Virus record (IMG/VR): IMGVR_UViG_2623620506_000007
Span: 1 to 16,606 of that record
Source: a virus
Lineage: Duplodnaviria > Heunggongvirae > Uroviricota > Caudoviricetes
DNA length: 16,606 bases
Strand: one strand, 5' to 3'
Under the pieces are notes generated by a model. It was not told the origin of the DNA. It did not search any database and saw only the letters and a list, made by a program, of their open reading frames with translations. The number at the start of each line of letters is the position of its first letter. Positions within the stretch are counted from its first letter, which is position 1. Positions 1 through 15,341 of the stretch are shown in pieces. The position numbers were made by a program, and so were the translations under genes.

Positions 1-84
1 ATGGCGGGTTATTTGTCCTGGTTATTCCCCCGTTGTAAAATCTCTCCTAAACTTAACGGTACGGCACCACACTTCGGGGATGAA

Positions 85-276
85 ATGTTCGCGCTGGTAC
101 TTTTTGTTTGCTACCTGGATGGCGGTTGTGAAGATATTGTTGTGGATGTCTACAACACGGAACAGCAGTGTCTTTATTCTATGAGCGATCAACGGATCCG
201 CCATGGCGGTTGTTTTCCGATTGAGGATTTTATAGATGGTTTCTGGCGACCTGCACAGGAGTACGGTGATTTTTAA
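85..276 (+). CDS. yebW: Small conserved protein, YebW-like (63 aa from the internal ATG at 85)
   Basis: ORF 1..276 in the track; the internal ATG at 85 gives a 63-aa product. It is convergent with pphA, which matches the yebW-pphA arrangement I recall from E. coli K-12. Identity rests on synteny and recalled size, not a search. Confidence 0.4.
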   Translation: MFALVLFVCYLDGGCEDIVVDVYNTEQQCLYSMSDQRIRHGGCFPIEDFIDGFWRPAQEYGDF

Positions 277-933
277 TTATTGCAATTGCACAAGAGTCAG
301 TTCGCCCCCAAAGACAGCACCGGTATCAATATAATGCAGGTTGCCAATATCCACGCGATGTCGCAACGGTGTATGACCAAACCAGAAATAATCAGCACCT
401 GTAATTCCCTGCCCTTTTTGGCGTTCACCTAATCGCGAGCGGCTCCACAAGACCTGATGCAAATCAACGTCCTTTTGCCATTCATAAACATCATCTGGAT
501 AATCGGCATGAGCAATAACATGTTTGCCGGTACGACTGTGTACTTCAAGAATAAAGGGCAAATGCTGACATTTTTCCAGCGCCGTTTTCGCTTGTTTCTG
601 TTGATTATCTGCCAGCGCAATAAACCAGTCGCCGCCATTCATCAACCACAAAGACATCTGCTGAGATGCCAGCGCATCCATCGCCATCTGTTCATGATTG
701 CCTCTTACCGCACGAACCCAATGTTGTTCCAGTAACTGCAGACAACGTAAACTTTGCGGCCCACGATCGATAACGTCTCCCACTGAGATAAGTAAATCTC
801 GCCACGGATCAAAACGACAATGCCATAATTTGCGGCGCAACTGCTCAAGACAACCGTGTATATCGCCAGAAAGCCAGATATGTCGCCATTGATGACCCGC
901 AATTCTCTGATAAACGGGCGCAGGCTGTTTCAT
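277..933 (-). CDS. pphA: Serine/threonine protein phosphatase 1, PP1/2A/2B (calcineurin-like) metallophosphatase
   Basis: Metallophosphatase motifs GDIHG, GDVIDRG and GNHE are present in the 219-aa track ORF. The first codon in the track is TTG; the ATG at 933..931 gives 218 aa, preceded by GGAGG about 9 nt upstream. The N-terminus matches my recollection of E. coli PphA/PrpA. Confidence 0.9.
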   Translation of the reverse strand: MKQPAPVYQRIAGHQWRHIWLSGDIHGCLEQLRRKLWHCRFDPWRDLLISVGDVIDRGPQSLRCLQLLEQHWVRAVRGNHEQMAMDALASQQMSLWLMNGGDWFIALADNQQKQAKTALEKCQHLPFILEVHSRTGKHVIAHADYPDDVYEWQKDVDLHQVLWSRSRLGERQKGQGITGADYFWFGHTPLRHRVDIGNLHYIDTGAVFGGELTLVQLQ

Positions 934-1060
934 CAATATTTTCCTCCCGCGCTAAAGATCACATAATCTTAACAAGAATGTTAAAAAACGCTGGACTCAG
1001 ACAGTAGAGTGTGTGTTATGGTTGACTATAAAGTCAGCGAAGGGAATGCTTCTGGCTTTT

Positions 1061-1093
1061 AACAGATAAAAAGAGACCGAACACGATTCCTGT
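1061..1093 (-). ncRNA. sdsR: 3'-terminal fragment of sRNA SdsR/RyeB (terminator half plus U-tract); putative att core
   Basis: The minus strand reads ACAGGAAUCGUGUUCGGUCUCUUUUUAUCUGUU, which matches the 3' end of SdsR as I recall it. The 5' half of the terminator stem that should follow (CCGAACAC) is replaced by CGUAAAC, so similarity stops near 1094. The rest of the sRNA gene is absent. Confidence 0.4.
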
Positions 1094-1104
1094 TTACGCC
1101 CCAA

Positions 1105-1155
1105 TCAATAAAAACCCTTTAAATTCATCGTCATAATCCATAAAACCCTTCAAAA
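1105..1155 (+). repeat. Two direct copies of ATAAAA(A)CCCTT(T/C)AAA about 31 bp apart; candidate integrase arm-type sites
   Basis: caATAAAAACCCTTTAAAttc at about 1108-1123 and ccATAAAACCCTTCAAAAac at about 1140-1155, in non-coding DNA just inside the putative att junction. Confidence 0.3.
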
Positions 1156-1386
1156 ACAACGATGCAATACTTACCATTGCGTTCTTTCAAGATCAAACTT
1201 TTGCCAATCTATTCGAGTGCGCGACGAGTAAATTTCGTGGCGTCATAATCGTTGATTTAATTATCGCGCATTTGCAAAACTATGCGCAGCTCCTTCCAGA
1301 AATCACCTCGGCTTGTTTACAGCCACCCCGACCGCCGGCACAATCGCCACCGATCTGTTTGTATGATTTATGGTGCGCACCGCCTT

Positions 1387-2655
1387 TCAACGGACAATCA
1401 ACAAATCAGAAAATCTTGTCGTATATCGAGGCGACAGCATTTCCCTTTTCATTTGCCACTGCTGCTGAACGCCCTGGCCAGCAAAGTAAATCGTTCCCCT
1501 ACCGTCTTTGGCATTAAGATTATCCAGCAACTCCATGAGCTTCTCGCTGCCTGCCCGCGGCGCGTTCTCATCAAAGAGATTAAGCTGAGCGACACCCTGA
1601 CTGAAGAAGTCGCCAAGCATGACGCCGGCTTTCTGATACCGATGGCCGTCTCGCCAGATTTTGTCCAGGCACTTTACCGCCGCATTGATTATGTCCCGGC
1701 TGTCCTGCGTGGGAATAAGAAGCTTAATTGATGCACTGTTGCCATAGTAGGGTTCATTAAGGGCAAAGGGGCTGGTCTTCACGAAGGCTGAGATAAAGCG
1801 GCAGTACTGATGCTCACCGCGCAGTTTCTCCGCCGCGCGTGCAGCGTAGCTGCAGATAGCCTGGCGCATCTGCTCATAATCGGTAACCCGCTCGCCAAAA
1901 GAGCGGGAGCAGACAATTTCCTGTTTCGCCGGCGCAAACTCCTCCAGTTCAAGGCATGGCTCGCCGCGCAGTTCCCGCACGGTACGCTCCAGCACCACAT
2001 TGAAGTGTTTTCGGATAATCCATGTGCCCTGCTCTGACAGGTCCAGCGCGGTTTTAATGCCCATTGCGTTGAGCTTTTTGCTGATGCGCCTGCCGACGCC
2101 CCAGACATCCTCCACGGGAACGAGAGACATTAGCCGACGCTGGCGATCGACGTTCGACAAATCCACTACGCCGCCGGTCTGCCGCTGCCATTTTTTCGCA
2201 GCGTGATTAGCAAGCTTCGCCAGGGTTTTGGTCTGGGCAATGCCGACGCCCACGGTAAGATGTGTGTTCTGCAAAACCGTAGCGCGAATTTCCCTTCCAA
2301 AATCTTCCAGGTTCCGGCAATTCCGTACGCCAGTGAGATCGCAAAAGGCCTCATCGATTGAGTATATTTCTACGCGAGGGCTCATTTCCTCGAGCGTTGT
2401 CATTACACGCTGGCTCATGTCCGCATACAGCTCATAATTGGAACTGAAGCAGACCACGCCGTAGCGACGGAACAAATCTTTCTGCTTAAAGAAAGGCTCG
2501 CCCATTTTAATGCCCAGCTCTTTCGCCTCCGCAGAACGGGCAATAACACATCCATCATTGTTAGAAAGCACGACCACCGGCCGCCCTTTCAGGTCTGGTC
2601 TAAATACCGTTTCGCAGGATGCGTAAAAAGAATTTACGTCACAGAGCGCGAACAT
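1387..2655 (-). CDS. umuC: UmuC, catalytic subunit of error-prone DNA polymerase V (Y family), 422 aa
   Basis: From the ATG at 2655 the product starts [22 protein letters not shown] and runs full length with the beta-clamp motif QLNLF. It is very similar to enterobacterial UmuC from memory. The track start at 2670 is a longer alternative; the ATG at 2655 overlaps the upstream stop as TGATG. Confidence 0.95.
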
Positions 2656-2930
2656 CACATCACCGGGCAATCATCAAAGTCAGTCGGTTCGCCAGAATGC
2701 GTTAAGATACCGACCAACTGAACATACTCCAGTGATTCCCCTTCAATGGCCTCACCTTCTTCAGTAATCAGCGCATTCCCAGCTTTATACGCATATTGCT
2801 GGCGACCGCAAAACCATATCAGCAATGTGACGCTGGCGTAAGCATGTCTCTCGCACTCTTCTGGAACGTCTAACATTTCGATATTAGGTAAGCTACCGCA
2901 TACCTCAAAGTTCTCTGTGTAATCAATCAT
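2655..2930 (-). CDS. Small acidic 4-Cys protein (91 aa) in the position normally held by umuD; function unknown
   Basis: ATG at 2930 with AAGGGG 7-12 nt upstream, LexA box and promoter directly upstream, and stop overlapping the umuC start (TGATG). No S24 peptidase hallmarks (no GDSM-type serine, no TVKK-type lysine), and it is too short for UmuD (about 139 aa). The other two frames are full of stops, so this is not a frameshifted umuD. Confidence 0.65.
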
Positions 2931-2946
2931 CTGCCCGCCCCTTATG

Positions 2947-2989
2947 TACTGTTTTTATATACAGTAGTTTTAATTTGAGGGCAGAGCAA
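2947..2989 (-). promoter_or_regulatory. LexA (SOS) box overlapping a sigma70-like promoter for the small-ORF-umuC operon
   Basis: Plus strand 2947-2966 is tactgtttttatatacagta, which on the minus strand reads TACTGTATATAAAAACAGTA, a perfect CTGT-N8-ACAG palindrome. It matches the E. coli umuDC operator as I recall it. -35 TTGCTC (2989..2984) and -10 TACTGT (2966..2961) are 17 bp apart, with the -10 inside the LexA box. Confidence 0.85.
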
Positions 2990-2994
2990 GAGAT

Positions 2995-3591
2995 TTACAC
3001 TTCTGGTGATGATGGCCAGTTGATCTGAGGAGCCGTCGAAGTATCGACTCCCTCGAGCGCATCGAGATAATCAAGCCATGCGTTATACTTCGCCTTTTCC
3101 GGATCATTCAGGCGGCCCATAGCTGCTTTGCCGGGCCACTGCTTACTGTTCATAAACTCATTTGCCTGATCGATTCTGTCCTGTTTCTCTGCTTCAGCAG
3201 CCGCAACATCAGCAGTATGTTCAGCTACAGTATCGGTTACCCATTTGGTGCCGTCCCACTTATCGTAGGGACTAGAAGGTGTGATGAGGGTATAACCATC
3301 GTGAATCGGCCCGATGTAATCTACGATTACAGCTGATTTGTCAGTGGTTGAATAAACTCTTTTACCGCGATTATCTTGTTTTTGTTCCCAATTACTACCG
3401 TTGAAAACCGCAACTTTTCCGGCAACCTCATCACCAGGATCAATATCTGTTGAATGCCCGGGCATGCTTACACCGATGTTAATGAATTCGTCAGACCAGC
3501 CCATATATTCTGATGTCACCGAATCATAATAAAAACAGCGAATTTCGCCATTTTGTGTTGCTAATCCATTTTCATCAAAAACAGGTTTCAT
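2995..3591 (-). CDS. Tail fiber assembly protein (Tfa chaperone)
   Basis: 198 aa with the C-terminal stretch KYNAWLDYLDALEGVDTSTAPQINWP typical of lambda Tfa / P2 gpG-type chaperones. It lies immediately downstream of the fiber gene, and its start overlaps the fiber stop (TAATG). Confidence 0.8.
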   Translation of the reverse strand: MKPVFDENGLATQNGEIRCFYYDSVTSEYMGWSDEFINIGVSMPGHSTDIDPGDEVAGKVAVFNGSNWEQKQDNRGKRVYSTTDKSAVIVDYIGPIHDGYTLITPSSPYDKWDGTKWVTDTVAEHTADVAAAEAEKQDRIDQANEFMNSKQWPGKAAMGRLNDPEKAKYNAWLDYLDALEGVDTSTAPQINWPSSPEV

Positions 3592-4313
3592 TACTTAGCC
3601 CTCACCAAAAAGTTAAATGCGATGTTACGCGGCCTTGTCTCGACATCCCCTGTAGAGCCTGTCTCAATGATGTAGTTTGTTAACGTGCCACCAGCGTCCG
3701 CACCAACAACGTACTGCCCAGATGTAGGGTCAAATCCTGTCGCCCCCCAGGTCTTTTCAAATCTATGAGTGTGTGCTTTTAAAGAGTCCGCCTGTGCACT
3801 TAACAACGCCCGGCCGCTATCAATCCCGCGGCCATCATCCCAAACACGCAGAAATTCTCCACGTGCTTCAGTTAGCGTTAGCCCAGGAAATACCAGGGCA
3901 AGTTTTGGGTAGGTTGAAGCTGAAAATGTAGCGCCGTTAAACTTCAGAAACACCATATCTGCCCATTCGGTCATAACGGTATTAGGCATTGCTGACGATG
4001 GCCAGAAGAATGGAATACCAATGGCAGGCGCACCCGCCTCTAAGCGCAGGTTCTTGATAAGCGCATTCGTGAATTTTGTCACCAGGCCATTGACGTCTGC
4101 ATTGTCCAGGGCATCAACGCCGGAGTTGGCAATAAACTGTCCCACTACCGCTGCGATAGTAGTCGCTTGGCGAAGCGCTTTATTTACTTGTGCGCTGGAC
4201 GCTTTGCCTGCAGCAAAACCAGACAGCAACGCGGGTAGCGCTTCCCAGCCAGCCTGTGGAGTTACATTAGCGTTAGGATCAAGCGCGAACGCTTTAAAGT
4301 TGTTTGTTGCCAT
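3591..4313 (-). CDS. Tail fiber protein with tail-collar-type domain
   Basis: Contains EARGEFLRVWDDGRGIDSGRALLSAQADSLKAHTH, which resembles the phage tail-collar / fiber motif. The ATG at 4313 (MATNNFKAF...) is preferred to the track start at 4331. Only about 240 aa, which is short for a fiber. Confidence 0.7.
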   Translation of the reverse strand: MATNNFKAFALDPNANVTPQAGWEALPALLSGFAAGKASSAQVNKALRQATTIAAVVGQFIANSGVDALDNADVNGLVTKFTNALIKNLRLEAGAPAIGIPFFWPSSAMPNTVMTEWADMVFLKFNGATFSASTYPKLALVFPGLTLTEARGEFLRVWDDGRGIDSGRALLSAQADSLKAHTHRFEKTWGATGFDPTSGQYVVGADAGGTLTNYIIETGSTGDVETRPRNIAFNFLVRAK

Positions 4314-4993
4314 CAGAATAATACCCCCCATGCGCCGGTATCAAAACCGCCGATATATTCGTTATCCATATCAAAACCAAAGAATTTTGAGCCTTCGGAG
4401 GGTGTTTCAACCGAAGGCATTTCAACATCACCAGCCCATACGCCAGCTGCTTTAACGGTGAGATAACCCTGCTTGATAGCGGCAATCAGTTCGAGTGACA
4501 CATCCGAAATATCGGTCTCCGGGAATACCCAGACCGAGATCGTCATGTCCTGGTTGTCAACGATCTGCATCTTCAGGCCCGAACCCACCGTGGCAGTGTC
4601 AAGAATGTCCGGAAGCGAATCGTTACGCCCGTCCCAGTTGTTAATAGCGATTTTTGCTTTCAGAATAGTGCGATAGGTATCATCGCTAAGCGTCGTATAG
4701 CCGGAGTCAGGATCATATGGCCCCTGCCATACGCCCTGGTCATATCCGAGCCCCTCCGTGTCCCAGCTGAAATAAACGCCACTTATCGGCTGGCTGACTA
4801 TACGGCTACGTCCAATCCAGAGTCCGAGAATATCGAGCTGCACGCCAACAGCCGTATCGATGTCAAACGCACCCACCAGACCCCTTGTGGCTGACGTGAT
4901 ATCAATCAGGGGACGGGTACTCAGGTCGATGTGATCGAGGTATTTCGGCTTAGTGGCGTGGTAGTTAGTGATTAAATCCGTGTACCTGCTCAT
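4313..4993 (-). CDS. Baseplate / tail protein, DUF2612-like (e14 YmfQ-like)
   Basis: 226 aa between the J-like gene and the fiber, the position held by YmfQ-type proteins in e14/SfV-like tails. Start overlaps the J-like stop (ATGA). Family assignment is from position and general character, not a search. Confidence 0.5.
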   Translation of the reverse strand: MSRYTDLITNYHATKPKYLDHIDLSTRPLIDITSATRGLVGAFDIDTAVGVQLDILGLWIGRSRIVSQPISGVYFSWDTEGLGYDQGVWQGPYDPDSGYTTLSDDTYRTILKAKIAINNWDGRNDSLPDILDTATVGSGLKMQIVDNQDMTISVWVFPETDISDVSLELIAAIKQGYLTVKAAGVWAGDVEMPSVETPSEGSKFFGFDMDNEYIGGFDTGAWGVLF

Positions 4994-6189
4994 GACGTCA
5001 CCGTGATAACGATGTTTGCCGGTTTACATGAAGCTGATTCGTCGTAGGCTATGATTATGTTTGCCGATGCTACGGATCCTGCTGATTTACCGATGAGTAA
5101 TTCCTGGATGTCGTAATAACGCGCGCTACCGCCGCTGACCACCCCGAGGTTGGCAGGTGAATAAATGCGGCTCAGCAGCACCGAATCACCGATCGTCAGA
5201 GCGTTGATGTAATCCGCAACGGCCTGCTGAATCGCCTTCCCTATTTGTGATGTGTAACCTGCGAAAGCTTTCAGCGTTATATGTCCGTAAATAGGAACAT
5301 CCGTTGACCGGGAAAAGCGAATCACATGGGGATTACCGTATTTATCCGGCACCGTGACGGCTGTCGCACCATACGTTGACACCCCCTGCCCCTTATTGCC
5401 CCTGATGGCCTGGGCGATTTCAGTCAGATCGCCGCCATCCACGATGGCAGAGATAGAGTGTGGCGGCAGCCCATTACTGTCGGTCGTGCCGGTATCATTC
5501 TCGTAGAGCTTGTGACGTGTAACCCCTGCAACGTTCACTATCGCACCGTCCACGCCTTCAAACGGCGTGATGGAGGGTAGCGCGACGCTCTGCCCCTGCC
5601 GGGTACGCAACTCTGCATCGGTTTCCGCCGGGGAGCCGACGGTGGCCGCCGCCGGGTTAGTTACCGAAGTCCAGCCGCGCGTCGGTGTGTTAATGGTCGT
5701 GACCGTTCCGGACAGCGCGGCCACTGCGCCGCTATTTGAGCAGGTGGCAGTGACCGTCGCCGTCCCGTCTAAACCAATTACCACTGAGGCCGGCATGTTC
5801 CAGACCAGGCCATTCTTATCCCTGACGGAACCATTTGAAATGGTCGTCCCGGCCGCGCCGCTAAGCAATAAATCAACCGTTGAGTTGGTAGCCGTTCTCC
5901 TTTTGATACCGTTTATTTTTACGTTCTTGCTCAGCCCTGCGCCATAACCGGTGGCGGGCGAAAAGCTGTTGTAAACAGCAATGGCCGTGTTATTAGCATC
6001 GTGAATAGCCAGGGCCACCAGAGCAACCATCTGCCCGTCTTTGCTGTCAGGATTCAGATAAGCATCGCTGCCATATATCTGTTTAAAGTAGTTGGTCAGG
6101 GTGTCCAGTATTGTCTGGTAATCAGGCGCGCTGATCCCCTCAGCGGTTACCGTTGCCGATAAGCCGAGCGTGTCCAAATTGAGGGCCAT
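4990..6189 (-). CDS. Baseplate J-like protein (P2 gpJ / Mu gp47 family)
   Basis: 399 aa, Thr/Gly/Ala-rich, in the canonical position after the gp25-like gene and directly abutting it. Confidence 0.75.
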   Translation of the reverse strand: MALNLDTLGLSATVTAEGISAPDYQTILDTLTNYFKQIYGSDAYLNPDSKDGQMVALVALAIHDANNTAIAVYNSFSPATGYGAGLSKNVKINGIKRRTATNSTVDLLLSGAAGTTISNGSVRDKNGLVWNMPASVVIGLDGTATVTATCSNSGAVAALSGTVTTINTPTRGWTSVTNPAAATVGSPAETDAELRTRQGQSVALPSITPFEGVDGAIVNVAGVTRHKLYENDTGTTDSNGLPPHSISAIVDGGDLTEIAQAIRGNKGQGVSTYGATAVTVPDKYGNPHVIRFSRSTDVPIYGHITLKAFAGYTSQIGKAIQQAVADYINALTIGDSVLLSRIYSPANLGVVSGGSARYYDIQELLIGKSAGSVASANIIIAYDESASCKPANIVITVTS

Positions 6190-6543
6190 TTATGCCTCGC
6201 TGGTAAGGGTGGTTTGTCCGTAGATAGTGTTTATGGTGGCTGTGAACGTAACCCGGCGTGTCGTGCTTTCATTCACGGTATCAAAGGCCAGGATGGACAG
6301 AACGCCAGGCGTGGTGCTGATGCGATCCCTGATCGCAAGGTTATAAACCTCAGGCCTTTGCTTTCCCAGAACAGACTGGATATAGGGTGTGCCCGCGGTC
6401 GTGTCCAGAAACCACTGGCCCTTCCACAGTTCAAAGCGAGTTTTTACGGCCTGGGCCACGCACTCAGGGGAGTTGATCAGGAAAGTATCATCGCCCTGGC
6501 CGAAGGTGTAGTCTCCGTCTTCGTCTTCGCGTCGGTATCGCAT
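6190..6543 (-). CDS. Baseplate wedge protein, GPW / gp25-like
   Basis: 117 aa between the spike and J-like genes. The segment AQAVKTRFELWKGQWFLDTTAGTPY fits the gp25/GPW pattern as I recall it. Confidence 0.5.
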   Translation of the reverse strand: MRYRREDEDGDYTFGQGDDTFLINSPECVAQAVKTRFELWKGQWFLDTTAGTPYIQSVLGKQRPEVYNLAIRDRISTTPGVLSILAFDTVNESTTRRVTFTATINTIYGQTTLTSEA

Positions 6544-6545
6544 AA

Positions 6546-7199
6546 TTACCCCCCCAGTGGTTTCGTATTGCTGCCGCCGCTTTCCACGCCGCCATGCGTA
6601 TGCTTATCAACCATTGAGCCATCCACCAGCTGCAGGCGGCCGTCAGGCAGAATTTTCAAACCGTTGAGGTTAAAACCTCCCGGCGCAGTTCCCGTTATCG
6701 CTCCGGTTGAAGGATTAAGACTCAACCTGGTACCACCGTCGTCGCTGCGCAGTTCAACCGCACTGGTACTGATGCCGCTGATTTTCTTTGCCTGCGACTG
6801 CGGCCCCACTATGGCAAACGCATCACTCAGGTCATGCTGGCGCGGGTCAACCGGTTCCTGTACCCCGCCGCTCTGCCACCAGAAGTCGATGCAGCGATCC
6901 GAGAAGACCAGGAGGCATTCGTCACCGGACTTTACCGGGAAAGTTAAAGTGCAGCCGCCGCCGCGGGGAAACACCACCGGAACGTCTGGCAGGATCGGTA
7001 TCTCCTCAGAAACCAGAGCACCATCGTCGCCGAGCCGCTGACCATAGATGGCCGGCTGCACGGTGCATGTCACTGTTTCAGGGTCAAAGGACTGGATGAT
7101 CCCCGGCAAAGCCACGCGCAAGCTGCCGAAAATGGCGTGGCGATGCGCCTCAAGGGTCTGCGATTCGTTGCCGTCCTGCGCGCGGGCTGATACTGGCAT
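6546..7199 (-). CDS. Baseplate spike / assembly protein V-like (Mu gp45 / P2 gpV type)
   Basis: 217 aa with a Gly-rich C-terminal tip carrying HTH (VDKHTHGGVESGG), as in the metal-binding apex of gpV-type spikes. GGAGA lies 7-11 nt upstream of the ATG at 7199. Confidence 0.65.
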   Translation of the reverse strand: MPVSARAQDGNESQTLEAHRHAIFGSLRVALPGIIQSFDPETVTCTVQPAIYGQRLGDDGALVSEEIPILPDVPVVFPRGGGCTLTFPVKSGDECLLVFSDRCIDFWWQSGGVQEPVDPRQHDLSDAFAIVGPQSQAKKISGISTSAVELRSDDGGTRLSLNPSTGAITGTAPGGFNLNGLKILPDGRLQLVDGSMVDKHTHGGVESGGSNTKPLGG

Positions 7200-7210
7200 A
7201 GTTTTCTCCA

Positions 7211-7240
7211 GGCAATAAAAAACCCGCCGTAGCGGGTTTG
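7211..7240 (-). terminator. Rho-independent terminator for the minus-strand transcript
   Basis: Minus strand reads CAAACCCGC-UACG-GCGGGUUU followed by UUUUUUAUU: an 8-bp GC-rich stem with a 4-nt loop and a U-tract. It sits 16 nt after the stop at 7256 and directly upstream of the spike gene RBS. Confidence 0.7.
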
Positions 7241-7255
7241 CGTGAAAAGGTGATT

Positions 7256-7576
7256 TTATATGTCTTTTTTAAGTACTAACTGGCAGTCATCCTTGGTTAA
7301 TCCCAAAACTTTTGCCGACTCCTCATAACCGCAGGCGGTTTTCACTCTCCTGAATCCGAGCAAGGCAAACTTATCACCTTGGGTTTCCATGAGATGTTTT
7401 TCGTCCCCACCTTCTCTTCTTGCGAAGCCTGCAGCTTCAAATCTTGATGCTTTTGATATAGCCACATGAACCGGGAAGTTTTCATCCAGATCGGGATGTT
7501 TTTTGAAGAAGTCAGCCAACGTTCCAGCCGTACATGAAAATGAAGCCAGGATGATAAAAACAAGCAGTCCTTTCAT
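7256..7576 (-). CDS. Small exported protein (106 aa, N-terminal signal peptide, Cys-containing); moron gene 2
   Basis: N-terminus MKGLLVFIILASFSCTAG is hydrophobic and signal-like, with no canonical lipobox. Local GC is lower than in the flanking tail genes, and the terminator follows. Confidence 0.55.
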   Translation of the reverse strand: MKGLLVFIILASFSCTAGTLADFFKKHPDLDENFPVHVAISKASRFEAAGFARREGGDEKHLMETQGDKFALLGFRRVKTACGYEESAKVLGLTKDDCQLVLKKDI

Positions 7577-7581
7577 GATAG

Positions 7582-7911
7582 TTACCCATTAGCACTACAG
7601 TTATAAGTCCCAAAAACTCGCGGAGCGTTCATATTTGCCCTAAGCGCTTCAACATTCAAAAAAGCCTTGCCGTCACGCTTAATCAGTTCATAGCCATATG
7701 CATACCCATCAGGGGCAGGGGACAAAACCATCTCAAGCTTCATGTTGGAATAGTCGCCTTTCGCCTTCAAAAAAGTAACTTTTTGAGTGCTGGTCACCAC
7801 CCCGTTTATTGTCGTTTCGCCTGACTCGTTGGCATCAACTAGCCATTTACCACACTTTAACCCCGAGGCATGACTAATGCCTGCAGCCAGTAGCACCAAG
7901 ATACCTAACAT
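7582..7911 (-). CDS. Small exported protein (109 aa from the ATG at 7911, signal peptide with SHA-SG cleavage-like site); moron gene 1
   Basis: The track ORF 7582..8028 overlaps the hub gene by 110 nt. The internal ATG at 7911 gives MLGILVLLAAGISHASG..., a typical signal peptide, and starts 7 nt after the hub stop. Low-GC segment. Confidence 0.55.
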   Translation of the reverse strand: MLGILVLLAAGISHASGLKCGKWLVDANESGETTINGVVTSTQKVTFLKAKGDYSNMKLEMVLSPAPDGYAYGYELIKRDGKAFLNVEALRANMNAPRVFGTYNCSANG

Positions 7912-7918
7912 CCTAATG

Positions 7919-8992
7919 TTAACCGCCACCTGGAACTCCCCTTGCGATTGCAGAGCTCGATAATAAATCCTTCGCCCCGCGCGCCATACACATGAGGTCC
8001 ATATACCATGGATTTCCCCTCGTATCACCGGTGTAGCTGATTGACTGAACTATGTAAACGCCATCAGTTGCCACACTGGCGGGCTGCGCAATAGTGCCGC
8101 CAAGGGAAAGGTTACCATCATTGCTCGACTCTGTGATCCTTGACTGTGATCTTTGAATTTCGTCGTTGGGCAGCTGCGAACGATAGACTGATGCCTGGTC
8201 CAGCTGGATCAGGCCATTCACACGGATGTTTGGGTTGATGAGACAGCGAACATTGACGCCGGCGCCCATGGTTTGCTGGGGCATGCCGACCAGTCCCGTT
8301 TCACTACTGAGCACGCTCGCTTCATGAAGGTATTTATTCTCAGGCACCATTTGCAGCTGGCCGTCGACAAATTGCCAGTTAGCCTCGCACTGCGCCGCCA
8401 GGTTGCTCATGTAGTCGCGCGTTGCGCCGAAGAAGACGCGACCACGTGGCATGACACGGTCAGGAAACTGCACGGTGATGCCCTGGGTGATGCCGTAAGG
8501 CGAAAAGTCCTTCATCAGAAGTGAATGCACGTCGGCAAGCTTATATCCTGCCGCCAGGCTACCGGACGATACGGCTTCATTGAACGCCTTATGGCCATCC
8601 ACCGACTGAATTAGCGTAAAAATATCGGTAGGATTATCGCGCCCGGTTATCGTAAAACGGATCTCTCCATCAAAAATAACCCCGTAATTCTGCCCGCGCG
8701 TCTGGCCGGTTTGCTCAGATGAAATCTCGGTAACCTGCCCAACCTCACTTTCGGTAACCGTCGGCGCCAGGCCGTTATACCCGGCTATGATGGTAATGCG
8801 AGAAAACTCATCCCCCGTAATCCGGGTGATTGTGTCACGCTTGAGGTTGTAAATTTTAAGCGTCGCCACACGTGGCCACATCGAGTTAAACCAGTCGATT
8901 GCGAAGGTAACTTTAAAGTCCGACAGGGATATTCCGTTCCCCTTGTCGTTCAGAAGCCGCAGTTCAAAATGGCGATTCCAGTTAATAGTCAT
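7919..8992 (-). CDS. Probable baseplate hub protein (P2 gpD / Mu gpP-like)
   Basis: 357 aa in the position that follows the tape measure and small tail proteins and precedes the spike in Mu-like tails. The call is based on gene order and size only. Confidence 0.45.
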   Translation of the reverse strand: MTINWNRHFELRLLNDKGNGISLSDFKVTFAIDWFNSMWPRVATLKIYNLKRDTITRITGDEFSRITIIAGYNGLAPTVTESEVGQVTEISSEQTGQTRGQNYGVIFDGEIRFTITGRDNPTDIFTLIQSVDGHKAFNEAVSSGSLAAGYKLADVHSLLMKDFSPYGITQGITVQFPDRVMPRGRVFFGATRDYMSNLAAQCEANWQFVDGQLQMVPENKYLHEASVLSSETGLVGMPQQTMGAGVNVRCLINPNIRVNGLIQLDQASVYRSQLPNDEIQRSQSRITESSNDGNLSLGGTIAQPASVATDGVYIVQSISYTGDTRGNPWYMDLMCMARGAKDLLSSSAIARGVPGGG

Positions 8993-8995
8993 GCG

Positions 8996-9301
8996 CTATT
9001 CCTGAACAAAATAAAGATGGCTCGAGGCACCAAGGTTTGTTTTCGTCGGGTATTCAGGGGCGCCGTTGTCTGTCATAACCACCAGCGCGCCAGATATCCC
9101 CAGATCCGGATACTGAGCCAAAAGGTTAACTCCCGGCACCAAAGGAACACCCATTAACAGAGGTTGCGCGCCGCTATCCATCACGTCCATTATCCAGCCG
9201 GCATCATCGCGCCACAGCACGCGGAGCGTATAGCTTACGTCGCCCAGGGTGATGCGAAACTCCTGGTTATCGGGAATCATAGGTATCTCATTAACGCTCA
9301 T
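8996..9301 (-). CDS. Tail / baseplate protein, function unknown (101 aa)
   Basis: Translationally coupled on both sides: ATGA overlap with the upstream gene, and its stop lies 3 nt from the hub start. Confidence 0.5.
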   Translation of the reverse strand: MSVNEIPMIPDNQEFRITLGDVSYTLRVLWRDDAGWIMDVMDSGAQPLLMGVPLVPGVNLLAQYPDLGISGALVVMTDNGAPEYPTKTNLGASSHLYFVQE

Positions 9302-9876
9302 GGTCCCCTCGCAAAATCAGCTATTTTCTGAATTACAGATGAACTGCTGGTCGGCACCAGAGATTTCATCCCTGTATTTTGTACTGGCGCAGTGCTGACC
9401 CCTTCCTGCATGTTGGCCTTATCCGTAACAGTGATGCTCTGCGTATCAGACATGATCACTTCCCGGAGCGTCAGAACGCATGACAGCACATTTTCGCTGG
9501 TCCGGTCCGTGGTGACCTCGATAGCGCGTATCAGCATATTGCTGTAGGTGCGCTTGCCGGTGACAACATCAAACGGCACCCGGGATTGTTGCAACTCCAG
9601 CAACTGCTGATAAATCTCCCTCGGGCTCTCGCCAACCCGCAAGCCTATGCTGGACAGATTCACCAGGTCGAGTACCGACCCGCCGCCGGCAAATCCGCAC
9701 TCCATAGTGACCTCACTGGCGCGCTTATAGGCGTGGTCGTTTATAGCGGCGCCAAACTCCACCGGATGTTCAGTAATTTCCAGAGCATCAACATGCTTCT
9801 CCGATACCACCACGTCAGGCACAAAAATACCTATTTTCCGAGACTGCAGCCGGAAGATGGCCGACAAAATATCCAT
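9298..9876 (-). CDS. Tail protein, function unknown (192 aa), directly after the tape measure gene
   Basis: Its ATG at 9876 overlaps the tape measure stop (ATGA). Confidence 0.5.
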   Translation of the reverse strand: MDILSAIFRLQSRKIGIFVPDVVVSEKHVDALEITEHPVEFGAAINDHAYKRASEVTMECGFAGGGSVLDLVNLSSIGLRVGESPREIYQQLLELQQSRVPFDVVTGKRTYSNMLIRAIEVTTDRTSENVLSCVLTLREVIMSDTQSITVTDKANMQEGVSTAPVQNTGMKSLVPTSSSSVIQKIADFARGP

Positions 9877-11864
9877 CAGTAGACCCTCGGTTGTAGCTGC
9901 TGAGTGAGACGGGAGTTAACGCCGGATTGACGATCGGCAACCTCCCGGCCAGTGGATGCCGGGTCGCTCGCGCCGTAAATGTTGATGTTCGTTTCCTGGC
10001 TAATCTGAGCTGGTGCGCCAGCCCCCACTCCAGCAGCCATAGTTACCAGTTCGCTTGGATATGGGTTGCGTCCGTTTTCATGGTGGATAATCCCATTCAT
10101 GAGTGATGACAGCACCTGAGGATCTTTCAGGTTCAGTGCGGTATCTGGCGCGACACCGAGTAATTTAGAGAGCTGCGAAATATACGCCTCAGTGTTGTTT
10201 TCACTATCTGGTGCCCAGGTTGAGATGATTTCACTTAGTGTCTGCAAAGGCTTGCCCGTTGTTTTGCCTTCAAAGTAACGCATCAACTGCCGTGCCATTG
10301 CTTTCAGCCCATCAAATGCAGAGCCAAATTTGGCAAATCGCCCTCCTGCCCTCTCTAACTGGGCGCCTTCCTGCCCTTTGAAATCGAGGTTGCCTGGGTT
10401 GTTATTTCTGATGCCACGAGGCAAAGCTGATTGAGCGTGCTGATCTGGGTCTTCCTCACCAGTAAACCATCTGCCAATGCTTCGCGGATCAAAACCAGTC
10501 CGGCTCTTAATCCACTCGGCGGTATTATTCGCGCTATCCGAAACAGCCGGCAAAGCATCGGGATTATCTCTTCCCTGCGCCAGCAGGTTCTTGCCGATCG
10601 CATAAGCATCAGACCACCGGCCCTCGTTGATGGCGTTAATCAGATCGCCAATCATCTTGATCATCTTGCCAAACTCACCGAACTGCCGGGTAAGATTTTC
10701 GATGTCGCCTTTAAGGGTCCAGTTTTTGAGGTTGATATTGAGCAGCTTAGCGATTTCAACTCCTATCGCCTTCACGGAATCCCGCAGCTCGGCCAGCGAT
10801 TTCAGGGCAGCCTCTATTTCTGGCTCCCATTTATCCCAGGGCAGCAGGCTTTGACCGCCTTCTTTCCAGGTTTTGTAGTCGTCGTATAGCGCGAACAGCG
10901 CCGAGCCTAGCGCGATTACGATACCTATCGGCGATTTGAGGAACTCAGTGTTAAGCAACTGCCAAGCCGAGACCAGCCCGGACACAAGCATGATCAGCTG
11001 CTGTATATCGGGCGGCAGTTTTTTGAACCACTCAATCAGGCCACCTACCGCCTGCGAGACGCGCCACGCCATCTGGGTAATGACATCAGCAGCAAAGAGC
11101 ACCCCCTTCACTATCTTCGTGACCACGCTCTCTATCTTCGGCCAGTTCTCCAGCATCTGCTTGCTGAGATTGTTCAGCGTGCCGCTCAGGCCGCCGGCCA
11201 GATTCGAGCCAACCTTATCGCGCAGGATCCCCAGTAGCGAAACGAAGTTGCGCATGGAGGTCATGAACTTGTTGGACTGCTGCGCGGCCTTGTCAGCATC
11301 AAAGCCTGTCTTCTGCATCATCGACTGGTATTCAGCCGTGAAGCCGGACATTCCGCGCCGCATTGCCATCAGCGTGTTTTCGTCAATGCCCAGCATCTGC
11401 GCGAACTGGTTGGCACGATAATAGGGCATGGTGCTGAGGCGCTGGCCGACGCCGGTGAAGATAGCCGACATGTCACGCATCTGTCCGGAAGCGTCCCGGG
11501 TCTGCACCCCAAGGCGGTTCAGGAAGCCTTCGGCTCCGGGATTGCTGCGCATGAAGCGTGCCAGGCTCTCCAGTGAGTTCTGGGCAGCCTCGGCGCTGGA
11601 GCCGGTTTGTGAGGCAGCGTAGCCAAGTGCCTTGATGCCGTTGACCGATGCCCCGGTGCGTTCCGCGGCCCAGTAGAGTTTATCCAGGCCGCTGGCGATC
11701 GAGGCAGTGAGGCCCACGATGGCCAGCCCCGTTGACTCAACCACGGCCCCCAGTTTTACGACGTTTGCAGCCACACCTTTGAGCGTGGCTTCAAATTTCG
11801 CCTGGCCGGCGCCATCAATGTCGAACCCCAGAGAGACCAGGTAATCACGGATAGTATCAGCCAT
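9876..11864 (-). CDS. Tail tape measure protein (662 aa)
   Basis: Position after the chaperone, size, and Ala/Gly/Gln-rich helical sequence. There is a hydrophobic segment at about residues 290-327 and a distinct motif-rich segment at 483-605 (RGIRNNNPGNLDF ... HHENGRNPYP). GGAG lies about 13 nt upstream of the ATG at 11864. Confidence 0.85.
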   Translation of the reverse strand: MADTIRDYLVSLGFDIDGAGQAKFEATLKGVAANVVKLGAVVESTGLAIVGLTASIASGLDKLYWAAERTGASVNGIKALGYAASQTGSSAEAAQNSLESLARFMRSNPGAEGFLNRLGVQTRDASGQMRDMSAIFTGVGQRLSTMPYYRANQFAQMLGIDENTLMAMRRGMSGFTAEYQSMMQKTGFDADKAAQQSNKFMTSMRNFVSLLGILRDKVGSNLAGGLSGTLNNLSKQMLENWPKIESVVTKIVKGVLFAADVITQMAWRVSQAVGGLIEWFKKLPPDIQQLIMLVSGLVSAWQLLNTEFLKSPIGIVIALGSALFALYDDYKTWKEGGQSLLPWDKWEPEIEAALKSLAELRDSVKAIGVEIAKLLNINLKNWTLKGDIENLTRQFGEFGKMIKMIGDLINAINEGRWSDAYAIGKNLLAQGRDNPDALPAVSDSANNTAEWIKSRTGFDPRSIGRWFTGEEDPDQHAQSALPRGIRNNNPGNLDFKGQEGAQLERAGGRFAKFGSAFDGLKAMARQLMRYFEGKTTGKPLQTLSEIISTWAPDSENNTEAYISQLSKLLGVAPDTALNLKDPQVLSSLMNGIIHHENGRNPYPSELVTMAAGVGAGAPAQISQETNINIYGASDPASTGREVADRQSGVNSRLTQQLQPRVY

Positions 11865-12102
11865 TATTCTGGGCTCTCCATTTGGCTACAAGCGCGTCGT
11901 TATCGTCACGCATATCGAGGTAATCGTTAAGCAGCGCGATGCGGCACAGGTCCACTGCACCGCTGTCGAGGTCTTTCTGATCGAGGTTAAAAGCGAGCGC
12001 CGGACGCAGGATGTAGTCTTCCCCGCCCGGCATCGTATTGAAGGTTATTCCGCTGGCGGGGTGTTCGTCTCGCTGGTAGGGAGTCCTTGCAAAAAATTTC
12101 CC
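11857..12102 (-). other. -1 frame extension ORF of the tail assembly chaperone, reached by a putative programmed frameshift
   Basis: Frame-0 sequence CUG GGA AAU UUU UUG holds overlapping slippery heptamers G_GGA_AAU and U_UUU_UUG (plus 12090-12102). The -1 frame is then open for about 69 codons through the gap to a TGA at 11859..11857, overlapping the tape measure start. The gap is otherwise unannotated. Confidence 0.45.
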
Positions 12103-12470
12103 AGCGAATCGGCGACCACCCGCGCCACAAGCTGCAGCATCACGAACAGGTCGATATCATCAAAGGCCATGGTGCCCTGCTGGCACACCGGCACCCAGGC
12201 GCTCATATGCTTGCGCGCTACCACCTGCAGGCAGGGAAAAAGGATCGCATTCACGTCGTCATCACTGAGGCCGGAAACGGCGCCAGCGATCTTCGGCAGA
12301 ATACTTTCCATCGCGCCTTCGGTGTCTTTGGCATTCAGCTTCGTCTGGATGTTACGGAAGTCAGAAACCAGACCCGCCAGAACCGGCAGCAGCTTGCGGG
12401 ATACCTTTAGCTGTTCGAAAACGCTTAACTTAGCGATACGGTACTGCTGATCCTTGATAGTAATTTCCAT
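12045..12470 (-). CDS. Tail assembly chaperone (lambda gpG / P2 gpE analogue)
   Basis: 141 aa between the tube and tape measure genes, acidic C-terminal half, with a frameshift-accessible extension downstream. Confidence 0.7.
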   Translation of the reverse strand: MEITIKDQQYRIAKLSVFEQLKVSRKLLPVLAGLVSDFRNIQTKLNAKDTEGAMESILPKIAGAVSGLSDDDVNAILFPCLQVVARKHMSAWVPVCQQGTMAFDDIDLFVMLQLVARVVADSLGNFLQGLPTSETNTPPAE

Positions 12471-12473
12471 GAA

Positions 12474-12914
12474 TTAATACTCCCCCAGGAACGGGTCGAT
12501 TTTGATGCAGTCGAACACCCAGGCCACCGTCCCGCCCTCTTTGGCGTTCTGCCAGTCGGGGTGCTTCTGAAAGGCGCCGCCGCGCGCGGTCATGATGTCG
12601 CCAGATGCAGTGTTGCGGAACACAAAGACGTTATTGCCCCACAGCGCGGAAGACTGACTTTGTGCGTTGTAGGCCAGGGACAGCTTTTTGTTTACCGGCG
12701 AGGTTTTCAGGAGGTTAACGGTTACCGTTCCAGCCTTGCCGGCGTGCAGGGAGTGCATGCCCTCACCGTCAGCGCCGATCGTCATGGTGTTTTTATTTTC
12801 AACCATGGCGACGGTGATGCCCTCTTCTGAGTTGGCAGAACCGGCGCCGAGGTCAATCACCCCGGTGGGGCCAGTCATTGACCCCGTGATATCCAGAAAA
12901 GAATAAGTGCTCAT
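12474..12914 (-). CDS. Tail tube protein
   Basis: 146 aa immediately downstream of the sheath gene, typical size and position. G-rich RBS before the ATG at 12914. Confidence 0.7.
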   Translation of the reverse strand: MSTYSFLDITGSMTGPTGVIDLGAGSANSEEGITVAMVENKNTMTIGADGEGMHSLHAGKAGTVTVNLLKTSPVNKKLSLAYNAQSQSSALWGNNVFVFRNTASGDIMTARGGAFQKHPDWQNAKEGGTVAWVFDCIKIDPFLGEY

Positions 12915-12925
12915 TCAGTGCCCCC

Positions 12926-14416
12926 TTAGCGCACCACGTCGATTAATACATCAGCGAAGTGGATAGCCCCCGCCAGTTTGGTTGCTACCTGAATCACCGG
13001 CGCCTTACGCGCTTCACGATCTGCCTGCGCCTGGGCGTTGAGCGGGTTCGCATAAACGTAATAGCCTTTGGTCAGCATATCGCCTGATGTCAGCTGTCCG
13101 ACGTCACCGCCGTTCCAGATCCCCGGTGCCACCAGACCGTTGTTTACAGACTGGTCCATAGACTGTTCGACATTGGTCACCAGGCGCGTCACGCCCGCTT
13201 CGGTCTGCGGGATTTTGGTGGTTGAGGTGTAAAGCAGGTTCCAGAGGTTGTTCTGGACGTAGTTCTGCAGCCAGTCGAGACCGTGGCGCTCGTCGAAGAA
13301 GTCGCCGTTCGACATCACGCCTTCCTGGATGATGGCGGTATCGTTGGCGTAGCGCACAAACACGTTGCAGTTTTTTGCCTTGAGCGTGTCGGCCTGCTGC
13401 GCGGTGATCGTTTCGGCAGTGATGCCCGGCTCCTGCTTGAATTTCAGGGTGATGGTGGTGTTGTTACCCAGGAAATTTACGGTGAACGCGCGACCGAAGG
13501 CGGAAGCTGCCGCATATGGCACCTGGCTGTACTGGCAAAACGTACGGCCATAACCAGCAGCTTTCAGCCTGTAGGCAATATCCGTGGTGCTGGTTGAGTC
13601 CAGGACCTCGGTCGCCGCAGTTGTCACACCGTACACCCGGGAATCGCTCGCAGAGCCGATCAGGGCAGATACATCGATATGGTCCTGGTCCGTCATTGCA
13701 GTATCGGCGATAACCAGTCCATACCAGTCGGCTGAGTAGTTCAGCGCTGTATTCACCGACGGCAGCACTGAGGATGAGGCATCCTGGCCGTTTGACACGG
13801 TGGGGTTATGCGCTGAGTCAATGCCCAGCAGCGGCGCCAGGTCAGTGCCTGTGCCGGCAGCAACAGGAATACCGATCGCCGAGGAGGCCCCGGTAGTGGA
13901 AGATGTCACCACAAACTGATTCGAGCCGGCCACGTAGGAAACGGTGGTACCGGTAAGTTTCGCAGTGACGGCGGTCGCTACTCCGGCCAGATCGGTCACC
14001 GCTGACAGGTCGATACCCGTTACGGTTTTAACAGTGCCGTCCACCGAGATCTTAATCGCACCATCGTCGATCGCGGTAAAGTTTGCTATCGCCTGCTCTG
14101 CAGAGGTCAGTACAGCACCAGTGAGCTTGCCGGCCGTTGCCGGGCTGGAGGCGCGTTCCAGTTTGCCGATATACAGATCGCGGGGCTGCGGCGACTGCTG
14201 GAAGTAAAGGTTTGCCGCCTTGTACTCTTCAGCGGTAGTGCCAAAGTCAGTGGCGACACTTTCGATATCCTGGTAAAGGCGCATCACTTCTGGGGCAGTG
14301 ATTACGTCGGCGGTGCCGAGAACCAGCAGCGCGCCGAAGTTACGCCCGGCCGCCGCGCGAACGGCGAGCGCGACCTGCACGCGAACGACGCGTGATACAG
14401 ATAAGCCGTTAGGCAT
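12926..14416 (-). CDS. Contractile tail sheath protein
   Basis: 496 aa, Thr/Ser/Ala-rich with a conserved-looking C-terminal region, followed by tube, chaperone and tape measure genes. GGAGA lies 8 nt upstream of the ATG at 14416. Confidence 0.85.
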
Positions 14417-14419
14417 GAT

Positions 14420-14971
14420 TTAATCTCCGAAAAATTGTACTGGAGCAGAGAGGATGGATTTGATGCCGTACTCGCGTACCGTCTTGCGCCGTAGCGTCAC
14501 GGACAGGTCGTAGCGGCGCTGCCACTGGTTGTTGACGAGCTCCGGTGCCGGGATGATTCGGCCCACCTCGCCGAGCGTGAGGCCGACGCGATTTAGTTCA
14601 GCATTGTTCTGGGACACGAACAGACCGTTACGAAACGTTTTGGCGTAAGCCTGGCCTGCAGGTCCGTAGAAACAGCAGAGCACCACCAGCGATTCGAATT
14701 GCCACTGGTAGTCGGTGTCGTCGTCTTTGGTTACGGATGCCGGGTTGGCTGTGTCCTGGAAGTCTGTGATACCAAACCCGCACCAGTTGGTGCCCAGCAC
14801 CGGGATCGCTGGCTGAGGGTCGGTGAAGCGTGGTATGGCCATGCCATCCGGCAGACCAGATACACCACGTATCCACCGGCTGAGCTCGCGCTCAAGCGCT
14901 TGGTCATACTGCGGCGCCGGGCTGACTGGCGTCAGGTAACCCGGTTGCGTGGTGTCATTCAACTGGAGCAC
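14420..14971 (-). CDS. Phage structural protein preceding the sheath (neck or tail-terminator candidate)
   Basis: The track ORF begins at a TTG at 15043 and overlaps the upstream gene by 89 nt. The GTG at 14971 with GGAG upstream is the preferred start; an ATG at 14842 is an alternative. Start is uncertain. Confidence 0.4.
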   Translation of the reverse strand: MLQLNDTTQPGYLTPVSPAPQYDQALERELSRWIRGVSGLPDGMAIPRFTDPQPAIPVLGTNWCGFGITDFQDTANPASVTKDDDTDYQWQFESLVVLCCFYGPAGQAYAKTFRNGLFVSQNNAELNRVGLTLGEVGRIIPAPELVNNQWQRRYDLSVTLRRKTVREYGIKSILSAPVQFFGD

Positions 14972-15341
14972 CCCCGTTAAACTCCACCAGCTCACAGTGG
15001 GCCTGAACGAACCCGGCGCCGTATGAGGTGTACGGATCCACAAAAGTTACGCGGTAATGCCGCCCGTTGTAGAGCACCACGTCGGCATCCTGCCCGGGCT
15101 GGCCCTGCGTTAAGCGGAAGGTGGTAATCACCAGGATTGCGCCGTCAATAACCTGCCCTGCCGCCATGCGCCGGGCTTCCAGCGAGCGGTCGACGGTAAC
15201 CACGCCGTTGAACGGTATATCCTCCGGCGTATTGGTCACGAAGCCGTCAGCATCTTTCGCCTGGTGGTTACGGATACAGACCAGCGTGTAATCGCAGAAA
15301 TCTGGATCCGACAACACATCGGTTACATCGAGAAAAGGCAT
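14955..15341 (-). CDS. Phage head-tail joining / neck protein candidate (128 aa)
   Basis: Part of the translationally coupled string upstream of the sheath (TAATG overlap at 15341). Function inferred from position only. Confidence 0.4.
   Translation of the reverse strand: MPFLDVTDVLSDPDFCDYTLVCIRNHQAKDADGFVTNTPEDIPFNGVVTVDRSLEARRMAAGQVIDGAILVITTFRLTQGQPGQDADVVLYNGRHYRVTFVDPYTSYGAGFVQAHCELVEFNGGAPVE

Follow-up and report, generated by a model that had tools for sequence, protein, structure and literature searches.

The window examined here is the whole 16,606-nucleotide (nt) stretch of the viral record IMGVR_UViG_2623620506_000007 (IMG/VR; Caudoviricetes), which runs from a bacterial chromosome into a prophage, and the subject of this report is a two-gene unit at the right end of that prophage, consisting of umuC and, directly upstream of it, a miniature gene whose predicted product resembles UmuD′. 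Window positions 1–1128 are 99% identical to Escherichia coli chromosomes, which identifies the host flank as E. coli. A host from another species of Escherichia was considered, given that the cassette is missing from every complete E. coli genome, but this flank identity speaks against it. The prophage is real: the tail-fibre assembly gene next to the unit is followed on the same strand, without a break, by genes for a putative fibre, baseplate wedge/J, tape measure, tube and sheath, and related contigs carry, beyond the last gene of the window, genes for the major capsid protein, portal, terminase, lysis and a Q-type antiterminator. The element combines a contractile tail of the E217/PhiTE-like type with lambdoid Q and lysis genes. 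The unit and its immediate neighbour consist of the following features.

~1287–2992: putative cassette (‘moron’ unit), right end of the prophage
1287–1386, minus strand: conserved cassette 3′ flank of about 100 nt, a possible structured or terminator region (putative)
1387–2655, minus strand: umuC, 422 amino acids (aa), start codon ATG at 2653–2655, stop codon TGA at 1387–1389
2655–2930, minus strand: mini UmuD′-like gene (PHROG 3469), 91 aa, overlapping umuC by 1 nt (ATGA)
2938–2943, minus strand: Shine-Dalgarno-like AAGGGG, 7 nt before the mini-gene ATG, read from the sequence
2947–2966, minus strand: LexA operator (SOS box) TACTGTATATAAAAACAGTA, 16 nt before the mini-gene start codon
2984–2989, minus strand: −35-like hexamer TTGCTC, located 17 nt before the TACTGT with which the LexA box opens
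Between mini gene and tail-fibre assembly gene: spacer of 64 nt
2995–3591, minus strand: tail-fibre assembly gene (Caudo_TAP, 1.5e-27), last structural gene of the prophage

The umuC gene is apparently intact and would encode the catalytic subunit of a Pol V-type Y-family translesion polymerase. Its product matches the NCBIfam UmuC model NF002955 over the full length (875.6 bits, the cut-off being 431; residues 1–422 of 422) and contains the Pfam domains IMS (1.6e-43), IMS_C (1.7e-25) and DUF4113 (1.4e-22), which represent the Y-family core and the UmuC-specific C-terminal extension. The alignment with the chromosomally encoded UmuC of E. coli K-12 is free of gaps across all 422 residues, with 85% amino acid identity (73% at the nucleotide level), and D6, Y11, D101–E102, QLNLF and the C-terminal tail (..SPRYTTR.SDLL..) are kept. 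In UmuC, the acidic residues are catalytic, the tyrosine is the steric gate and QLNLF is the β-clamp motif. The closest relatives of the window protein are all of the Enterobacter type (90–92% identity), and the nearest copy of the gene, in Enterobacter bugandensis, is 95.4% identical in nucleotides and 99% in amino acids, with a ratio of nonsynonymous to synonymous substitution rates (dN/dS) of 0.024; umuC is under strong purifying selection.

A first-pass annotation of this DNA had proposed that the operon possesses its own LexA-controlled promoter. LexA control is well supported by the sequence, because the operator TACTGTATATAAAAACAGTA matches the LexA box before umuD in the K-12 umuDC operon at 20 of 20 positions and is the sole operator match in the window (0 expected, 200 shuffles), and because TTGCTC, with which the region delimited by that annotation ends, occupies the position of TTGATC in an alignment with the K-12 umuDC promoter region. 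The operator, which conforms to CTGT-N8-ACAG, overlaps the promoter region of the cassette, and of 80 viral loci, 43 have an operator of this form within the 120 nt that precede the mini gene. From these elements, LexA would be expected to bind and the promoter to be active; joint induction with the prophage and an additional mutagenic capacity of the lysogen, both proposed in the first-pass annotation, would likewise be expected. A consensus scan found no canonical intrinsic terminator on either side of the cassette, including the interval between the tail-fibre assembly gene and the cassette, and the cassette is co-oriented with the tail and late genes, 64 nt from the last of them; it may therefore also be expressed in lytic growth. 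On the other side, positions 1287–1386 align with the E. bugandensis cassette's own 3′ flank, after which homology ends; this segment has an RNA-folding z score of −2.2 and contains the perfect palindrome GGTGCGCACC, without a T-run terminator.

The gene that precedes umuC is no ordinary umuD; by its sequence it is a minimal member of a family of phage UmuD-like proteins (PHROG 3469) that is related to HumD of phage P1. Of the Pol V-type operon described in the first-pass annotation, the polymerase gene accordingly stands, but the accessory gene, which had escaped notice, is not a canonical cleavable umuD. The 91-aa protein matches phrog_3469 (‘UmuD-like protein’) at 6e-18, with residues 29–91 on profile positions 44–106 of 106, and typical members match it at full length (1e-47); HumD is assigned to the sister family phrog_811. 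Neither the 91-aa protein nor an alignment of 25 family members found a match in Pfam, NCBIfam or the PDB sequences, and Peptidase S24 (PF00717) and the NCBIfam UmuD model were unmatched by the window protein and by every one of the 25 members at expectation (E) values up to 10. BLASTP of the 91-aa protein against K-12 UmuD returned nothing, and in DNA alignments of mini genes with umuD, homology was confined to the promoter and the start of umuC. A homologue search returned 174 proteins of about 102–105 aa, all named ‘hypothetical’ and mostly from Enterobacter, whose genes always lie directly upstream of umuC at the cargo end of various prophage types and some of which begin with M-GFPSPAA, as UmuD continues past its Cys24/Gly25 cleavage site, and a profile search of a representative library of 1.84 billion proteins gave 151 cluster representatives, most of which begin with MGFPSPA.DY.E.

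The relationship to UmuD was resolved by profile–profile comparison. A broad family profile, consisting of the narrow set together with the 50%-identity cluster representatives of the 151, was aligned with UmuD by hhalign at a probability of 98.6% (E 8e-16) in 97 collinear columns covering UmuD 25–138, and the reversed-profile control was not significant (P 0.08–0.45). The narrow, Enterobacter-only alignment gave a weak result (P 0.01 local, 1e-4 global), and the comparison became decisive only once distant members from the representative search had been included. Intermediate forms also exist, namely ‘pre-cleaved’ proteins of 119–125 aa (L082, L091) that match both UmuD (1e-15 to 1e-24) and Pfam S24. 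In the alignment, typical members begin at the equivalent of the UmuD cleavage site (Gly25), their M-GFPSPA corresponding to the N-terminus of UmuD′ after Cys24/Gly25, and an N-terminal tail with the Cys24-Gly25 cleavage site is absent from the family and from the window protein, which begins with M-IDYTEN, aligned to UmuD 30-ADYVEQ. A gap of 11–12 residues deletes the Ser60 loop, and Lys97 aligns to alanine, leaving no Ser60/Lys97 dyad. With neither a removable tail nor a catalytic dyad, the mini subunit would therefore not be regulable by cleavage of the UmuD type. The C-terminal tail ..F.DD.PV[IM] is present in the window protein and in P1 HumD (..SGEFDDCPVI) and absent from UmuD. Two AlphaFold2 (AF2) models of the 91-aa protein reached a predicted local distance difference test score (pLDDT) of 64, with a confident small β-barrel for residues 33–78 only; fold searches with the predicted structure were non-specific and are given no weight as evidence.

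The mini gene bears signs of function. Compared with the E. bugandensis copy, codons 36–91 show a dN/dS of 0.066, and the reading frame, ribosome-binding site (RBS) and ATGA coupling are undamaged. The overlap of 1 nt with umuC is conserved, and the contig collection has the identical 91-aa protein in about 60 of its blocks. Codons 1–35 (2826–2930) have a dN/dS of 0.37 and a synonymous divergence (dS) of 0.84, against a dS of 0.12 in the rest of the gene and 0.21 in umuC, which suggests that the N-terminus is mosaic or loosely constrained and that a recombination breakpoint lies inside the mini gene. Gene architectures were counted in 80 IMG/VR viral loci and 80 GTDB loci, and in 28 of the 80 viral loci the mini gene is, as in the window, the sole UmuD-like partner of umuC. 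UmuC proteins partnered by a mini gene and those partnered by a canonical UmuD are 92–95% identical and share the same C-terminal UmuD′-binding tail.

The position of the cassette was established by base-by-base comparison with K-12, which delimits the following features on the chromosomal side.

277–936, minus strand: pphA, from the open reading frame (ORF) map and family scans
Between pphA and umuC: non-coding stretch of 450 nt
1030–1103: chromosome/prophage junction inside the bidirectional ryeA/sdsR locus
1030–1093, plus strand: 5′ part of ryeA
1068–1093, minus strand: last ~26 nt of sdsR
1094–1103: probable edge of the attachment-site (att) core, with only a partial K-12 match
1104–1286: att-proximal prophage arm, non-coding, in part common to other elements at the same site

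The window agrees with K-12 with one mismatch up to position 1093 and with partial identity to 1103, and shows no identity beyond. The 3′ end of sdsR lies at window position 1068, and the breakpoint is located 26–36 nt from that end, so that homology to K-12 stops 290 nt past umuC, inside sdsR. The first-pass annotation had placed the umuC operon within the inserted element, after the last tail gene and before an sdsR junction, and both the order of the genes and the junction at ~1093–1103 bear this out. No match to sdsR/RyeB was found with Rfam in the whole window, or in 900–3100 at E values up to 1, because just the last 26–36 nt (the 3′ tip) of sdsR remain beside pphA; the promoter and 5′ part of sdsR, having been displaced, must be at the opposite prophage end. 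In K-12 the site is empty, with ryeA/sdsR intact and no umuC. Different prophages occupy the same point in other E. coli genomes, and phage PhiW104 reportedly inserts into the final 23 bp of ryeB/sdsR (PMC7380047). In E. coli 98232, a different element at the same sdsR site carries an arm that is 87.6% identical up to window position 1240 (L109, ~4100–4240), and the arm at 1104–1286 also matches COL60J, patchily (L108), and is not common to the E. bugandensis cassette. The shared arm is consistent with a common integrase/att family at an sdsR hot spot. Downstream of umuC, pphA follows on the same strand, and phage sequence has taken the place of the 5′ arm of the sdsR terminator hairpin at the junction; SOS-induced transcripts of the cassette might therefore read into pphA.

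The sequence comparisons support the first-pass view of the cassette as prophage cargo, located inside the prophage with the last structural gene on one side and att on the other, and further indicate that it is mobile. The E. bugandensis cassette lies at the end of a lambda-like prophage of an unrelated kind, and homology spans from ~60 nt upstream of the mini gene to ~100 nt past umuC, the flanking phages being unrelated. The mini gene and umuC are found together at the cargo end of three phage types, namely HK620-like phages with gtrABC, lambda-like phages with J and integrase, and the myovirus of the window. At least 481 viral stretches in IMG/VR encode members of the mini family, mostly a few kb from the provirus ends. 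Neither megablast with the cassette nor tblastn with the 91-aa protein gave a match among GenBank phages, and a typical family member used as the query identified 94 GenBank phage records; the order tail fibre, UmuD-like protein, UmuC and integrase also occurs in the isolated phages CobraSix, PHB10 and Oslo. Among 5426 complete E. coli genomes, none contains this umuC at more than 80% nucleotide identity, so the proposal of phage-borne cargo survives this comparison, and only one (XJ55) contains any relative of the mini gene. A second, chromosomal umuDC in the host, as supposed in the first-pass annotation, is almost certain, since 5423 of the 5426 genomes carry one at >95% identity at hlyE-dsbB; the window copy differs from its K-12 counterpart by the divergence given above.

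A gene for an SOS-response-associated peptidase (SRAP/YedK-like) recurs near the cassette: it is convergent and just downstream of umuC in Enterobacter loci and lies within ~0.5–2.5 kb in E. coli 210205630, XJ55 and phage PHB10 (coordinates L020–L024, 7576–8247; L018, 4808–5479; L200, 693–1361; L193, 6710–7266), and the window cassette is without it. A 2026 survey links UmuC-like polymerases with SRAP-like proteins (PMC12926913).

The cassette resembles E. coli umuDC, which encodes Pol V (UmuD′2C), in its UmuC, operator, promoter layout and 1-nt overlap, and differs from it in location, umuDC being at hlyE-dsbB and the window cassette in a prophage, and in the small subunit, UmuD having 139 aa with Cys24-Gly25, the Ser60 loop and Lys97, whereas the window protein has 91 aa without these and alanine in place of Lys97. 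P1 HumD is, like the mini family, phage-borne and LexA-regulated, begins at the UmuD cleavage site and has the same C-terminal tail; unlike it, HumD has 129 aa, matches Pfam Peptidase_S24, keeps the loop and the lysine position, and has no cognate umuC, whereas the window protein is 38 aa shorter, matches nothing in Pfam and is coupled to umuC. HumD reportedly complements UmuD′ and binds UmuC, a result ascribed to McLenigan et al. in 1999, and a note in the GenBank record of P1 states the same. Phage mEp390 carries a lone family member of 106 aa, mEp390_026, at its tail-fibre/attP locus next to a DinI-like gene (L196, 3501–3821), which is annotated in GenBank as ‘similar to HumD’. The same two-gene layout occurs in Enterobacter phage vB_EclS_CobraSix, in which gp29 (‘UmuD-like protein’, 101 aa) and gp30 (UmuC) lie between the tail genes and integrase/att; its UmuC is 91.9% identical to that of the window, and the mini proteins are 43% identical over the conserved C-terminal 58 residues, but CobraSix is a siphovirus of another host genus, and its mini gene belongs to a subtype with a different N-terminus. 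In Escherichia phage PHB10, umuC follows the tail fibre directly and is accompanied by a full-length, cleavable umuD rather than the mini gene of the window, and in Salmonella phage Oslo the umuC locus likewise comes right after the tail-fibre gene, with a coding sequence of ~80 aa whose identity as ‘UmuD-like protein’ is from annotation only. The mucAB, rumAB and impCAB operons, carried on plasmids or on integrative and conjugative elements (ICEs), are, like the window cassette and the PHB10 and Oslo loci, SOS-controlled Pol V orthologues on mobile elements; their small subunit is full-length and cleavable, of the UmuD/MucA type. In Bacillus subtilis, including prophage SPbeta, YolD/YqjX, a small accessory protein that is not a peptidase and has an SH3-like core, is encoded directly upstream of a UmuC-like polymerase (UvrX/YqjW) (PMC6511836). 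YolD/YqjX constitutes a different, Gram-positive family (PF08863), and no sequence relation to the mini family was detected.

Considered together, these features probably represent a self-contained, LexA-repressed, two-gene Pol V-type cassette at the prophage end, whose accessory subunit would be produced in an ‘already processed’ form. In a lysogen, LexA would repress the cassette, and after DNA damage, RecA*-stimulated cleavage of LexA would allow both proteins to be made. The small protein, of the phage HumD lineage, would correspond to the already-cleaved UmuD′ form, having no cleavable tail, the Ser60 loop deleted and Lys97 replaced by alanine, and would bind UmuC without first undergoing RecA*-dependent self-cleavage, the step by which chromosomal Pol V is delayed and in which UmuD is cleaved on RecA filaments before UmuD′2 releases UmuC for action (PMC6511836). 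The complex would still require RecA/ATP for activation. The expected outcome is a second, Enterobacter-type translesion polymerase beside the Pol V of the host, by which damaged host and phage DNA could be replicated at the cost of mutations. Formation of the mini-subunit/UmuC complex, its independence of cleavage and its mutagenic output are predictions from the alignments and gene order. A wider generalization, that PHROG 3469 forms a distinct class of catalytically dead, cleavage-independent Pol V accessory proteins deployed alone, with umuC or before umuDC, in which the armless variant would be licensed as soon as LexA is cleaved and could yield faster or stronger SOS mutator lysogens, is put forward tentatively and is less likely to hold than the reading of the window cassette itself.

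Several observations weigh against the preferred reading of the cassette. The cassette promoter was not called by a simple promoter scan. The window protein, unlike most members of its family, lacks the first ~6 residues of the arm (GFPSPA), and since a model has the N-terminal arm of UmuD′ extending into UmuC close to the active site (PMC12926913), the window variant may behave differently from UmuD′. The mini gene stands alone in 39 of the 80 viral loci (15 of these contigs end within 400 nt of its stop), and in the other 24 of them no umuC is present within 0.4–5 kb downstream (IMG/VR loci L152–L191). The order mini gene, umuD, umuC, in which umuD is canonical and complete, is seen in a further 9 of 80 IMG/VR loci, in XJ55 of E. 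coli (L200, 2089–4360) and in 4 of 80 GTDB loci (L131, 4866–7043; L128, L130, L132–L137, L030, L033, L083 and L085), the mini gene being labelled ‘hypothetical protein’ there by the Prokaryotic Genome Annotation Pipeline (PGAP). The three-gene arrangement suggests that the mini protein does something that normal UmuD does not, and in view of this arrangement and of the lone mini genes, it may be more than a substitute for UmuD; together with the missing arm tip, these observations leave room for a modulator role. Lone mini genes are often seen at the tail-fibre/attP cargo locus, and P1 likewise carries humD alone.

In such a role, the mini protein would modulate Pol V as a decoy forming heterodimers with host UmuD/UmuD′, as a protector of UmuC from proteolysis or as a brake on mutagenesis, and the UmuC of the window would use the UmuD′ of the host. 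This is unlikely in our estimation, even though the 13 three-gene loci and XJ55, the many phages with a lone mini gene and the absence of the start of the arm all favour it, as does the C-terminal tail of the window UmuC, which is nearly identical to that of K-12, so that host UmuD′ could bind it; against it, the mini gene is the sole UmuD-like partner in the window and in the 28 viral loci and is translationally coupled to umuC as K-12 umuD is, and its relative HumD reportedly substitutes for UmuD′, as the GenBank note also says. It is far less likely still that the 91-aa ORF is a functionless, decaying remnant of umuD in a cassette heading for loss, as might be argued from its being the shortest member of the family with a diverged N-terminus, from the relaxed substitution pattern of codons 1–35, from the lack of Pfam and NCBIfam matches and from the internal deletions of the prophage in other assemblies; the constraint on codons 36–91, the intact frame, RBS and coupling, the identical protein in ~60 contig blocks and the breadth of the family (151 cluster representatives, at least 481 viral loci) speak against decay. 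That the cassette mainly serves the phage, being expressed by late read-through or early in induction for the replication of damaged phage DNA, with host mutagenesis as a side effect, is possible, although we regard it as the less probable emphasis. The tail-gene orientation, the 64-nt distance without a detected terminator, the fact that prophage induction itself follows DNA damage and the wide occurrence of phage-borne umuDC genes agree with such a use, but the cassette’s own LexA-controlled promoter points to expression in the uninduced lysogen, and the cassette is retained in prophage copies with large deletions that are probably incapable of lytic growth; service to the phage is in any case compatible with the preferred explanation of a pre-processed Pol V-type cassette. 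Finally, it is extremely improbable that these are ordinary chromosomal genes of the lineage that happen to lie beside a prophage. The 85% identity to E. coli UmuC and the identical operator might suggest this origin, but the K-12 site is empty, none of the 5426 genomes has the copy, chromosomal homology ends inside sdsR, 290 nt past umuC, and the nearest relatives are found in Enterobacter prophages and phages.

Umu operons borne by phages, plasmids and ICEs, cleavage-free phage proteins resembling UmuD′, the same gene pair in an isolated phage and the sdsR hot spot are already documented. What is new is the occurrence of this cassette at this E. coli site and the sequence-level description of the mini family, comprising the loop deletion, the change of lysine to alanine, the three gene architectures and the armless variant. 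Error-prone polymerases drive stress-induced mutation, including mutation to antibiotic resistance, and a LexA-controlled Pol V-type cassette that crosses between unrelated temperate phages and between genera (Enterobacter to E. coli) could supply lysogens with a second mutagenic polymerase. If the helper truly needs no RecA-mediated cleavage, a main safety delay on SOS mutagenesis would be bypassed in these lysogens. As Pfam and NCBIfam do not recognize the helper gene, which is named ‘hypothetical’ in bacterial genomes, such cassettes pass as orphan umuC genes in routine annotation.

The same prophage is present in other assemblies (L004, L005, L007, L008) with differing large internal deletions, of baseplate, head or tail blocks, at ~3600–16606 of the window, and every copy retains, beside pphA, umuC together with the mini gene and the tail-fibre assembly gene. 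These copies could be decaying prophages in which the cassette has been retained, or they could be artefacts of assembly. At the chromosomal end of the window, the flanking gene that the first-pass annotation had named yebY is in fact yebW (DUF1482), assigned from the ORF map and family scans to the ORF at 1–276 on the plus strand. An ATG at window position 1 gives this ORF 91 aa, and the annotated yebW of K-12 and other E. coli has 63 aa (192 nt); yebW itself probably starts inside this ORF.

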